DNA from: Opitutaceae bacterium | GTDB taxonomy: Bacteria > Verrucomicrobiota > Verrucomicrobiia > Opitutales > Coraliomargaritaceae | Direction: 5' to 3' | NCBI GenBank assembly: GCA_051252375.1 | Contig: JBPOFY010000012.1 | Span: 10,675 to 74,674 of the forward strand | DNA: 64,000 nucleotides | Part shown: one piece after another, positions 24,347 through 27,300 of the stretch | Layout of the letters: each line of letters starts with the position of its first letter | Numbering within the stretch: position 1 is the stretch's first letter | Translations under genes and position numbers: made by a program | The notes under the pieces: model-generated | Told to the model about the DNA's origin: nothing | Seen by the model: only the letters and a program-made list of their open reading frames with translations | The model's database searches: none

Positions 24347-27300
24347 TCATTGCAGAAATCCTGCTGTCACGCTGTCTTTGGCCTTCTTCAGTCCTGCGAC
24401 ATCACCTTGATGAAGGAGCTGTCCGCCAGCATCGCCACCGTTGGGACCGATCTCTATGATATAGTCGGCGTCGGCGATGACTTCGAGGTGATGCTCGATC
24501 ACGATGACGGTGTGGCCTTTATCGACGAGGCGGTGGAGAAGTTCGATGAGACGCTCGACGTCGGAGAGGTGGAGGCCGATGGTGGGCTCTTCGAGAATGT
24601 AGAGGTTGCCTTGTCCTTTATTGTATTGGCGCTCTTTGAAGGTGGGTTGTCCTTTGGCAAGCTCGCTGACGAGCTTGAGGCGCTGGGCTTCGCCGCCGCT
24701 GAGGGTGGGTGAGTATTGCCCGAGCTCAATGTAGCCTAGACCTGTCTCGACCATTAGCTGCATGAGGCTACTTAGCTGAGTATGGAAACTAAAGAACTCG
24801 ACCGCTTCTTCGAAACTCATTTTCAAAACGTCGGCGATGGATTTCCCGTTCCAGCGCAGCTCGTCAAGTTCGGCGCCGTAGCGACGCCCGTTGCAGTCGT
24901 CGCAGGTCACATAAGTGTCGGGCATGAAGTTCATTTCGAGCTTCACACGTCCTGCGCCTTTACAAGTCTCGCAGCGACCGCCTTTGGTGTTGAAGGAAAA
25001 TGTGCTCTTCGTATAGCCGCGCATGTTGGCTTCTGGAAGCTTCGCAAAGATGTCGCGGATGATGTCGAAGGCGCCGATGTAGGTGGCGGGCGTCGAGCGC
25101 GGTGTTTTGCCGATGGGGGACTGGTCGACCTCAATTACTTTCCGAATGCTTTCGGCGTTGTGCAACGCCTTGAAGGTCGAACTTCCAACGTCCAACTTCG
25201 AACTTTGAATTGCTTGAGATGCTTTACCCTTATTCGATGTTGAGCGTTCAGCGTTCGATGTTCGACGTTCCTTCGCGACTAAATCTTTGGAAGTCAGTTT
25301 AGGCTGTTTCGCGTCAACGGCTGCTTCGACCAACGGTTTAAGCAAATCGCGAATCAGGGTGCTCTTGCCTGCTCCGGAAACGCCGCAGACTGTGGTGAGG
25401 CGTTGCTTGGGGATTTGGACGTCGAAGCCTTTCAGGTTTCTCAATGCCGCGCCTTGGAGAGCGATCCAGTTTTCGTTGCCTTTCTTTTTACGTGGGCTCC
25501 ATGCGGCGGGTAGTTCGCGATGGCTGCCGCGTAGCGGGTGGGTCATTGCTTTGCGAAGATACTTCCCGGTGAGTGAGCGTTTGGACTTTTTGATCTGACT
25601 GATCTTACCGCTGGCGACGATCTCACCGCCGTGGACCCCCGCGGCGGGACCGAGGTCAATAATCTGGTCGGCCTTGCGCATGGTGGCTTCGTTGTGCTCA
25701 ACAACGATGAGTGTGTTGCCGCGGTTGCGAAGCTGTTCCATTGAGGCGATGAGCTTCTCGTTGTCGCGTGCGTGCAGCCCGATGGAAGGTTCGTCGAGGA
25801 CGTAGAGCACGCCGGAGAGGTTCGAGCCGAGTTGGGCGGCCAGGCGTATGCGTTGCGCTTCGCCGCCAGAGAGCGTGGCTGTGGCGCGGTCGAGTTGTAG
25901 GTAGTCGAGGCCGACGCGATCCATGAAGCGCATGCGTTCTTCGATCTCGGGAAGTAACTCCGCCAATACCGTTTCACTGCGTGTGTCGGTTTTGATCTGC
26001 TTTAGTGTGGCGAGTAGATTAGACGGTGTTAAGCTGAGGAGTTCGGGAAGTGAAACGGAGGTGGGAACGTTGGACGTTGAGCGTTCTTTTAATGGGAGTC
26101 TGACCGAGCGACTGAGCGGATTGAGGCGTGCACCTTGGCAGTCCGGGCAGGCTTCACCGTCTTCAAAGTCGTCGATGTGATCTTGAAGCGGATTCTCTTC
26201 ATCGCTGGCCATCCAATCAAAGAGTTGTCCGTAGCCTCGACAAGTGGGGCACCAACCGCGTGGGCTGTTCCATGAGAAGTGCTTTGGGTCGAGCTCGGGG
26301 AAGGCTTCACCGGTGGTCGGGTCGGTGCGTTTTGTGGAAAGCCAAGAAACAACTTCGCCCTTGGGTGTCAGAATGAAGGCACTGCCTTTACCTAGTCTCA
26401 AAGCCTCTTTCAGGCTTTGAGAAATGACTAATGACTGATGATTAATAGATAATGGGGTAATGACGAGATCGATGTCGTGCTCTTTGTAGCGATCGAGCTT
26501 TTTGAAGTTGTTGAGGTGGACGATTGTGCCGTCGATACGGAGCATCTCGTAGCCGTGGTCGCGGGCCCAGTTGGCGAGGGGTTCGTGGTGACCTTTGCGT
26601 CCGCGGATGAGTGGCGCGCAGAGGAGGAGGTTCTTATGTTTTGAAGCTTTGAGGTTTTGAGGTTTTGCGTGCTCGGCGAGGATGGTTTTTAGGCGTTTTT
26701 GTAGCGCAGCTTCGGATTGGCTGACGACGGCTACACCGGATGTAGGGGAATGTTGGATACCAATACGGGCGTAAAGTAGGCGTAGGTATTGCGCGACTTC
26801 GGTGATGGTGGCGACGGAGGACTTTCGCGTGCCTTTGGTGACGCGTTGCTCGATGGCTACCGTCGGGGCGATGCCATGTAACTCGTCGACATCGGCGCGC
26901 GGCATTTGCTCTACGAATTGGCGGGCGTAGGCCGACATGCTTTCCATGAAACGGCGCTGGCCTTCGGCAAAGATGATATCGAAGGCTAGGGAAGATTTAC
27001 CTGAGCCCGATACACCGGTGATCACGGTCATCTTGTTGTGAGCGATCTCGCATGAGACGTTCTTTAGGTTGTGCTCGCGGGCGCCGCGAATGATTAAGGA
27101 TTGGGAGAACGTTGAACGTCCAACGTCCAACTTCGAATCTTGACGGAGGTCTGCCGGAGATGGCGCAGCAATATTATAAGAGGACTGTGATTGGGCTACT
27201 GCTAGTTCATTCGACGTTGAATGTTCGACGTTGGACGTTGGACGTTCCCCAAGCGCTTCGCGCAGATAGGTGGCGGTTACGCAGTCGGTTTCTGCGATTT

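Follow-up and report, generated by a model that had tools for sequence, protein, structure and literature searches.

The window analyzed here, a 64,000-nt stretch from the genome of an Opitutaceae bacterium on which all coordinates below are given, carries a gene that encodes two UvrA modules as one protein and that contains, in frame, several short repeats, some of them built of inverted 7-nt units. Our subject is the origin of these heptamer repeats and above all of the one at the junction between the two modules, here called element E1. Arms are read in the orientation of the gene (minus strand) where stated. The gene and the parts of E1 lie as follows.

24347 to 30145, minus strand: double-UvrA gene, a single unbroken open reading frame (ORF) of 1932 aa in the ORF list and its translation, with module 1 at about aa 1-965, the linker at about aa 966-1017 and module 2 at about aa 1018-1932
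27209 to 27250, minus strand: 5' arm of E1, six units (GGGGAAC GTCCAAC GTCCAAC GTCGAAC ATTCAAC GTCGAAT), encoding aa 966-979
27139 to 27208, minus strand: inter-arm segment of E1, 70 nt encoding 23 residues, which by ortholog protein and DNA alignments holds the ancestral linker core
27104 to 27138, minus strand: 3' arm of E1, five units (ATTCGAA GTTGGAC GTTGGAC GTTCAAC GTTCTCC), encoding aa 1003-1014

Pfam finds UvrA_inter twice, UvrA_DNA-bind and ABC_tran in the encoded protein. Module 1 ends in ...TATYLREAL, the start of module 2 aligns with residue 24 of the Geobacillus UvrA 2R6F, and residues 1015-1932 match 2R6F over its full length (E = 6e-216). Because two complete UvrA modules are detected in this way, the protein is a head-to-tail fusion of two UvrA modules. 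Module 2 (24350-27103) has no counterpart of 2R6F residues 305-410, the insertion (DNA-binding) domain of about 105 residues, and UvrA_DNA-bind was found by Pfam in module 1 only, which makes the two modules non-equivalent.

Between the modules, the translation has roughly 51 residues that read exactly as an earlier, sequence-only reading of this DNA had quoted them. That reading saw in the underlying DNA a palindrome with arms of 41-44 nt and a spacer of 63 nt; the inverted repeat of 7-nt units (GTCSAAC on one arm, GTTSGAC on the other) is real, and the lengths given for arms and spacer were slightly off. Its statement that the linker is encoded entirely by the repeat went too far, as arm sequence makes up 26 of the 49 codons of 27104-27250 and the remainder is the 70-nt inter-arm stretch. 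A 30-nt piece of that stretch, GCTGCGCCATCTCCGGCAGACCTCCGTCAA, is identical in the DNA alignment with one ortholog (P0002).

The best-paired core of E1 (27114-27137 with 27224-27247) is 24 nt long and 96 % complementary, and the predicted RNA fold of the element, at −60.6 kcal/mol, is far more stable than that of shuffled sequences (−36.5 ± 4.0; z = −6.0), none of 200 shuffles reaching it. A 16-nt arm probe, GTTGGACGTTGGACGT, has 16 matches with at most three mismatches in the window, against 0.5 expected and with none of 100 shuffles reaching 16, and all of these matches are confined to four places: E1 and the elements E2, E3 and E4 described below. E1 is a repeat that chance does not produce, and it is read in frame within the double-UvrA ORF. 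The 1932-aa frame runs intact across E1, E2 and E3, which supports the earlier proposal that a hairpin-forming repeat is read through inside a DNA-repair ATPase. Rfam at its gathering threshold finds two tRNA genes only in the window, with no rRNA match and no match at the element sites.

The three further places had already been listed in the sequence-only reading, and all three copies are real.

25172 to 25274, minus strand: E2, in module 2, complete though more degenerate; its arms at 25232-25266 and 25176-25203 enclose a 28-nt spacer
26063 to 26086, minus strand: E3, a collapsed remnant in module 2, GAACGCTCAACGTCCAACGTTCCC, with the outer arm ends joined and the peptide ERSTSNVP
47912 to 48051, no strand: E4, intergenic, GGGAAC(GTCSAAC)n ... 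(GTTSGAA)nGTTCCC, fold z = −4.25

E1 has six and five units in its arms, E2 has five and four, and E4 has four to five. The stem of E2 is weaker than that of E1 (fold z = −2.2). At the E3 site, a full element with a site-specific spacer (NKKSKHS...) is present in P0002, P0006, P0007 and other orthologs, and in the DNA alignment the window's E3 equals the P0002 element minus its interior. Since the orthologs keep the full element there, E3 is an internally deleted remnant. E4 is located between the stop of an aminotransferase-like ORF (48060) and the likely start of an S4/Hsp15-like ORF, the genes on either side being co-directional (both minus strand), and the spacers of E1 and E2 bear no relation to the one in E4. 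The longest ORF of the S4/Hsp15-like gene (47536..47979, minus strand) begins within E4 (MNPEQSHSKLNVGRSTFDV...). Its true start is probably the downstream VRLDKWLW, and automatic annotation of this gene would yield a spurious N-terminus derived from the repeat.

We used a protein search to place the linker among its homologs. The search gave 120 matches, all from Verrucomicrobiota and mostly from Opitutales (Coraliomargarita, Lentimonas, Puniceicoccaceae, Opitutaceae), and the 116 of them that are full-length double UvrAs (1813-2078 aa) were aligned. None of the 116 orthologs is without a linker, and in 102 of them it includes the motif (L)A(V/A)AE-x3-5-Y/F. The window's copy of this motif, (L)AVAE-x-Y, sits between the arms of E1, in the first half of the inter-arm peptide. 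Judged by peptide signature, linker arms are missing from 79 orthologs; both are present in 16, only the left one in another 16 and only the right one in five. In P0009, from the cultured Coraliomargarita sp. W4R72, arms stand at several sites. The core motif is kept in 67 of the 79 orthologs without arm signature, and the median linker measures 27 aa without arms versus 43 aa with both. In a neighbor-joining tree, the deep branches (P0098-P0104 and P0110-P0120) are empty at the E1, E2 and E3 sites. The position of the core motif between the arms, together with the presence of a linker in arm-less orthologs, indicates that the linker is older than the arms and did not arise from them; judging from these alignments, the arms were added to a pre-existing, conserved linker.

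The suggestion that the element had been exapted as the linker, or constitutes it, is therefore at odds with the orthologs, all of which have a linker and whose arm-less basal lineages keep the core motif. The sequence-only reading had itself named two findings that would speak against it. One, a linker peptide conserved in distant orthologs without the palindrome, is in part what we observe, since it is the core of the linker that they keep; the other, a lack of further copies, is not, as copies are abundant.

The E1, E2 and E3 sites are loops and joints of the protein. At the E2 site, bounded by the helix that follows Walker A in the second ATPase domain and by the strand KVIDIDQSPIG, the double UvrA has 52 residues where the 2R6F structure has 13 (677-689). 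The E3 site falls at a gapped loop near 2R6F residues 443-452, and the linker site joins the C-terminus of one module to the N-terminus of the next. Among the orthologs, these sites hold at least four other repeat-like peptides (TPLLSKEGCPKGGVVF, MEGRAPSRPP...GNDRALPS, HSPLSTP... and GGTTSVSS) or are empty. In one ortholog (P0023), three tandem copies of VAGASSSMASRQQREQDAPTT occupy the E3 site, where the segment is 87 aa long versus 13 aa when empty, and larger in-frame additions are also found at the linker in P0072 and P0075; additions of the P0023 type imply that the permissive sites accept far more than one element. The heptamer repeat is also present in frame in other genes, which encode another UvrA (L078), a BatD-like protein (L004) and, in Geminisphaera colitermitum, an AMP-binding enzyme (L051).

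Stop codons are absent from all six frames of the two main units. Because three 7-nt units make seven codons, any frame of an array gives a permutation of hydrophilic peptides of the NVERPTS or LDVGRST type. We considered whether six-frame freedom from stops is a special design of the unit and rejected this, since 50.4 % of all heptamers share the property and several minor unit variants do have stops.

The occupants of these sites differ between close relatives. The closest relative (P0001, locus L120), whose gene is 90.9 % identical at the nucleotide level, is without AACGTCS-type arms anywhere in 25 kb, all three of the window's copies being missing. It holds other repeats at the E1, E2 and E3 sites with the same junctions. 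At its left linker junction, a different small hairpin, GGGACGACCTCCGTGTCGTCC, lies between the shared flanks GCGCTTGG and GAACT; at its E3 site there is a hairpin pair related to the GGGACGACCTCCGTGTCGTCC hairpin; and at its E2 site a solo TCCCCAC heptamer array follows AAGGAAC in the same register as the window's AACGTCS array. The more distant P0002 (L122; 77.6 % identical) combines both linker arms with a full E3-site element and has a dimer of repetitive extragenic palindromes (REPs) of the GTAG type at the E2 site.

Identity between the window and P0001 swings along the gene from 99-100 % down to about 50-60 %. It stands at 97-100 % over 25680-25920 and 26860-27040 and drops to 50-70 % where the repeats sit. 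Close to E3, the window resembles P0002 (0.86-0.90) more than P0001 (0.63). This mosaic of identity to L120 suggests recent recombination tracts, and the simplest reading would be that recombination among related lineages swaps linker and loop alleles along with the repeats in them.

Beyond this gene, an exact-pattern scan with GTTSGACGTTSGACGTTS, taking one genome per species, returned at least 119 stretches. The matches listed come from all classes of Verrucomicrobiota and from Planctomycetota, Lentisphaerota, Kiritimatiellia, Desulfobacterales, Acidobacteriota, Gemmatimonadota, Bacteroidia and cyanobacteria, and several metagenome-assembled genomes have more than one match among them. In the array pairs among these listed matches, (GTCSAAC)n is followed by (GTTSGAC)n in 34 cases versus 7 in the opposite order, unrelated spacers of 7 to 409 nt separate the two arrays, and the outer ends are GAAC and GTTC. 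Arms of the same locus are more complementary to each other than arms of different loci (p = 1.7e-6). Arrays lying deep within long open frames number 62 of 199, a figure to be read as an upper bound for in-frame copies.

The two pairs with the longest spacers (L015 and L050) enclose an ORF of about 115-127 aa that matches PF05635 (E = 1.7e-13 and 1.3e-11), the Pfam family of the 23S rRNA intervening-sequence (IVS) protein, also called S23p, an Avd-like four-helix bundle. Remnants or adjacent copies of PF05635 occur at L021, L034 and L063. For the converse test, a metagenome scan was run with a PF05635 protein as the sole query; of the 60 loci that it returned, 48 have a near-complete ORF, and an array was counted where Tandem Repeats Finder (TRF) reported a period of 7 within 130 nt of that ORF. 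Among these 48 loci, period-7 arrays stand upstream in 46/47 and downstream in 45/45, with arrays on both sides in 43. The full cassette has an ORF of about 115 aa between arms of the form gGAAC(GTCCAAC)~5 ... (GTTGGAC)~5GTTtc, with a modal length of 5.3-5.7 units, placed about 37 nt before the start codon and about 25 nt after the stop. Its unit drifts as the protein diverges (AACGTCC, AACGTCG, AACATCG, AACATTC, AACGCTC, AACGCCT). In the cassettes L123-L177, arm length clusters tightly at 5.3-5.7 units on both sides. At the level of the repeat family, heptamer arms are therefore what normally flanks a PF05635 ORF. E1, E2 and E4 share the unit, arm length and termini of this cassette and lack its ORF, and they therefore look like miniature derivatives of it.

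Our preferred explanation, to which we assign a probability of roughly 0.62, is that the linker arms are gene-less miniature copies of a dispersed repeat whose full form is the PF05635 cassette, and that they are carried in the gene as tolerated passengers. The full form would consist of about 5.5 tandem AACGTCS units, the PF05635 ORF and about 5.5 SGACGTT units. Internal deletion would strip members of the family of the ORF and leave them as inverted repeats able to form hairpins, or as solo arms. In Opitutales, GTAG REPs, other heptamer arrays and these ORF-less copies would repeatedly come to occupy the linker and at least two module 2 loops, the few positions at which the large and otherwise highly constrained double-UvrA gene tolerates added residues. 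As the units are free of stops, an in-frame insertion would merely add a hydrophilic peptide (…ERPTSNV… or …KLDVGRSTF…); the ribosome would read through the arms, and the protein would retain its older linker core. Selection would remove insertions other than those in the loops and the linker, so that a long, constrained gene in a repeat-rich genome might accumulate them there. The insertions would accordingly be near-neutral passengers that are or were mobile, with alleles spread by recombination.

Several observations weigh against this explanation. We did not find a PF05635 gene in the 64-kb window or at the relatives' uvrA loci by tblastn and a custom hidden Markov model, the uvrA copies and E4 hold no remnant of a PF05635 ORF, and none of the cassette-bearing loci is from Opitutales, their sources being other orders of Verrucomicrobiota and other phyla; the link to the cassette is therefore drawn from other genomes. 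No transposase or REP-associated tyrosine transposase (RAYT) turned up in the 64-kb window, in which no systematic search for transposases was made, and a target-site duplication is not apparent, no direct repeats being seen at the E1, E2 and E4 junctions. With neither a mobility gene nor a target-site duplication seen, we infer mobility rather than observe it. Nor is E1 a simple insertion: its arms enclose host linker core, a layout that the insertion of one cassette derivative cannot produce. Two insertions, each losing one arm, might have done so, or a composite unit carrying inter-arm sequence. In the ortholog P0062, E1 and E2 share 35/37 nt of left arm plus spacer piece, which hints at a composite unit of this kind.

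The conservation of the elements raises a further difficulty. Spacers are site-specific and conserved across orthologs (NK.K....IQSS for E2, NKKSKHS for E3), which argues that the element at each site stems from one old insertion and agrees less well with insertion happening there again and again. When the window is compared with P0002, identity at third codon positions is 81 % in the arms versus 55 % gene-wide, which hints at nucleotide-level constraint or homogenization rather than pure neutrality. Arm complementarity was 16.75 within species versus 13.9 between species (permutation p = 0.003). The similarity of orthologous arms did not differ from that of non-orthologous arms (15.2 versus 14.7, p = 0.32), and arms at different sites of the same species were weakly more alike (16.5; p = 0.035 against other arms, p = 0.09 against same-site arms). 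With similarity signals this weak or absent, neither an old orthologous insertion nor a species-specific master copy is clearly supported. Gene conversion that homogenizes the arms, selection on the stem, or both could be the source of the arm conservation and pairing signals.

Selection on the stem leads to a different explanation, that the hairpin is a cis-acting RNA or DNA structure kept for what its stem does, for example as an RNase III site or as an inter-module translational pause that tunes UvrA expression or co-translational folding. We regard this as unlikely, although conservation at the nucleotide level and the signal in arm complementarity lend it some weight, namely the high third-position identity of the arms and their better pairing within than between species. 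It would also account for the 24-bp, 96 % stem of E1 with its z of −6 and for the long stems that are predicted in 8/8 arm-bearing ortholog DNAs, and the stems of related, cassette-type IVS elements are known RNase III substrates (PMC4990558). What it does not readily explain is that 79 of the 116 orthologs and the 91 %-identical closest relative do without the arms, the latter having unrelated repeats at the same sites, and that one-armed alleles, which are unable to form the stem, outnumber two-armed ones (21 versus 16). The stem of E2 is weak and E3 has collapsed. Moreover, the arms carry no orthology signal, as would be expected from homogenization toward a family consensus and not from site-specific selection.

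It is improbable that the arrays formed in place by replication slippage of a heptanucleotide simple sequence repeat (SSR), with the inverted layout being incidental. Heptamers are the most over-represented class of bacterial SSRs (reviewed in PMC4679880 and PMC4692102), unit number does vary between orthologs, and the closest relative has another heptamer array (TCCCCAC) in the same register at its E2 site. Slippage of this kind would nevertheless not be expected to yield the same AACGTCS unit in many phyla, the 34:7 polarity bias of the inverted pairs among the matches listed, defined boundaries (GGGAAC ... GTTCCC) or the near-universal association with a PF05635 ORF at fixed distances. Slippage probably changes the number of units without explaining the origin of the arrays.

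We consider it equally improbable that the whole linker is element-derived, as the sequence-only reading proposed when it described a palindromic element exapted to join the modules. One conceivable route is that an intergenic element between tandem uvrA genes was read through and so created the fusion. Both ends of the linker are covered by arms, the freedom of the main units from stops in all frames would ease a read-through fusion, and the E2-site spacer of P0062, P0073 and P0077 resembles the 3' half of the linker core (AAE.A.IQSS), so that, together with the sequence shared by E1 and E2 in P0062, the 'core' may be able to travel with arms. Against this, 67 arm-less orthologs, all basal lineages (58-67 % identity) among them, combine the core motif with a linker of 20-27 aa, the closest relative P0001 has the core and no arms, and the spacers of E3, E4 and unrelated loci contain no linker-like motif. 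The fusion route through a read-through intergenic element was rejected, as the arm-less linker of the basal lineages carries the core motif.

A chance palindrome, an assembly artifact or a pseudogene can be set aside, given the shuffle statistics for both the probe matches and the fold, the intact frame of 1932 codons and the presence of the same elements at the same sites in orthologs assembled independently (NCBI, ENA, JGI, Logan).

In-frame palindromic repeats are classical for Rickettsia, where they are known as Rickettsia palindromic elements (RPEs). The comparison that the sequence-only reading drew with them is apt, in that a palindromic repeat lies in frame in an intact, functional ORF. 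Both kinds are short hairpin repeats that are translated in frame, sit at permissive positions and have DNA-repair genes among their hosts. RPE-4 and RPE-6 are CGTC-tagged stem-loops of 8-9 bp with a 4-5-nt loop and a CCA tail (PMC3733652), whereas the uvrA element, which is unrelated to RPEs in sequence and lineage, has tandem heptamer arms of about 35-42 nt, spacers of 28-70 nt and a PF05635-bearing relative. By sequence the uvrA element is not a member of the RPE family, and the likeness would be one of analogy only.

The same reading was unaware of any such case in this lineage, for which one had already been described. In the work of Di Nocera et al. (2013), Opitutus terrae, a member of the Opitutales, had the most intragenic GTAG REPs; both of its uvrA genes are interrupted in frame by dual REP inserts, and DNA-repair genes were reported to be in excess among REP hosts (PMC3733652). 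Therefore, neither the lineage nor the host gene is new. The O. terrae case agrees with ours in order, in uvrA family and in having several in-frame inserts per gene, but the heptamer element lacks the unpaired GTAG that such REPs have at one end of an imperfect palindrome of 20-40 bp (it ends in GGGAAC...GTTCCC), its arms are not individually palindromic, and it has no known or observed association with a RAYT.

Likenesses to the full cassette are found in IVSs of the S23p type (Coxiella, Leptospira), which also have a terminal inverted-repeat stem around a PF05635 ORF and of which short, ORF-less versions exist elsewhere. The IVS in the Coxiella 23S rRNA is 428 nt long, with a 28-bp terminal stem in which RNase III cuts, an S23p ORF and tandem GACAGAT heptamers whose number varies between strains, and the origin of IVSs has been called unclear (PMC4990558). 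Those variable heptamers sit at the junction of stem and ORF. Classical IVSs occupy helix 25 or 45 of the 23S rRNA, from which RNase III excises them, whereas the copies in the window lie in a protein gene and an intergenic spacer, are ORF-less and have a different heptamer. PF05635 proteins are homologous to Avd, the accessory protein of diversity-generating retroelements (PMC10053308).

In Xanthomonas, arrays of a GGGAATC heptamer form 70-75 convergent inverted pairs, are intragenic in 7-11 % of cases and have been read as G-quadruplex elements without mention of S23p (Rehm et al. 2015, PMC4692102). These arrays resemble ours (TRF period 7) in being dispersed 7-nt repeats that often converge on opposite strands, but the AACGTCS / SGACGTT unit is without the G-tract of the G-rich Xanthomonas unit, and no in-frame decoration of linkers or loops has been described for the Xanthomonas pairs (PMC4692102). 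Miniature inverted-repeat transposable elements are likewise non-coding, 100-150 bp long, multi-copy, bounded by terminal inverted repeats and polymorphic for presence or absence, and they derive from a longer, ORF-bearing relative by internal deletion. The uvrA element differs from them in that its arms are tandem repeats and its longer relatives carry only the PF05635 ORF and no recognizable transposase. A literature search in a limited library, which is not proof of novelty, returned no paper that links dispersed heptamer inverted repeats to PF05635 cassettes and no match for the arm sequence itself; within that limit, the tie between heptamer arms and PF05635 cassettes across phyla is new here.

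E1, E2 and E3 are not the only repeats in the gene, which holds at least six repeat insertions of three classes within its 5.8 kb. About ten distinct inverted repeats were detected in the whole window, four of them in uvrA. The remaining insertions in the gene are as follows.

28774 to 28843, minus strand: GTAG-type REP dimer in frame in module 1, with 28-nt arms, 86 % complementary and 14 nt apart
27523 to 27592, minus strand: another GTAG-type REP dimer in module 1, likewise in frame, flanked by the signature motif and Walker B
29533 to 29565, minus strand: solo CCACTCC heptamer array, 4.7 copies, in frame, the heptamer differing from the E1 unit; an array of the same kind fills the E2 site of the closest relative

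Both REP dimers begin with GTAGGGACG, have the layout GTAGGGACGC...GCGTCC ... GGAC...GTCCCTAC and translate to peptides of the form GRDACPQAS...KRT.EGS.PY; they belong to the class already reported inside the uvrA genes of Opitutus terrae (PMC3733652). Adjoining the CCACTCC array is a hairpin at 29494-29534 (minus strand, about aa 204-217; 19 nt, 89 % complementary, 3-nt loop) in conserved UvrA coding sequence, which may be due to chance or may mark an insertion site. Elsewhere in the window, inverted heptamer arrays of an unrelated unit (GAAGTTA / TAACTTC, five copies) lie at 6167-6199 and 6253-6285, in apparently intergenic DNA, with 33-nt arms that are 76 % complementary and 53 nt apart. 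Directly downstream of the stop of a glutamate-dehydrogenase-like ORF (46135..47460, minus strand) is an inverted repeat of short, AT-rich, TAATC-like units (46024-46043 and 46087-46106; 20 nt, 90 % complementary), which may be a terminator or belong to another repeat family.

Taken as first stated, the finding changes little, because the in-frame decoration of uvrA by repeats in Opitutales was known and the linker is not an exapted element. What the 116 orthologs add is mosaicism at the level of alleles, the same three or more sites being filled by different repeat types. The double UvrA of Opitutales is thus an unusually rich natural experiment in insertion tolerance, one that maps the permissive surface of UvrA.

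The PF05635 cassettes are the same kind of unit as the ORF-bearing IVSs of 23S rRNA, whose origin, mobility and protein function have been open questions since the 1990s. A broader reading, which we offer tentatively and as less than an even chance, is that heptamer-armed repeats are the footprint of an uncatalogued element that spans phyla and consists of five to six heptamers, a PF05635 gene and five to six inverted heptamers. Classical ORF-bearing 23S rRNA IVSs would then be copies of it that landed in rRNA, and ORF-less miniatures would be colonizing intergenic DNA and in-frame loops. The covariation of the cassette unit with the PF05635 protein suggests that the protein recognizes the arrays and aids their spread or maintenance. 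S23p and Avd proteins are homopentamers, and one may speculate that there is one heptamer unit per PF05635 subunit. A DNA scan blind to the protein and a protein scan blind to the DNA converge on one architecture, which makes the question experimentally approachable. If the broader reading is true, S23p proteins would gain a function and the origin of IVSs would be explained.

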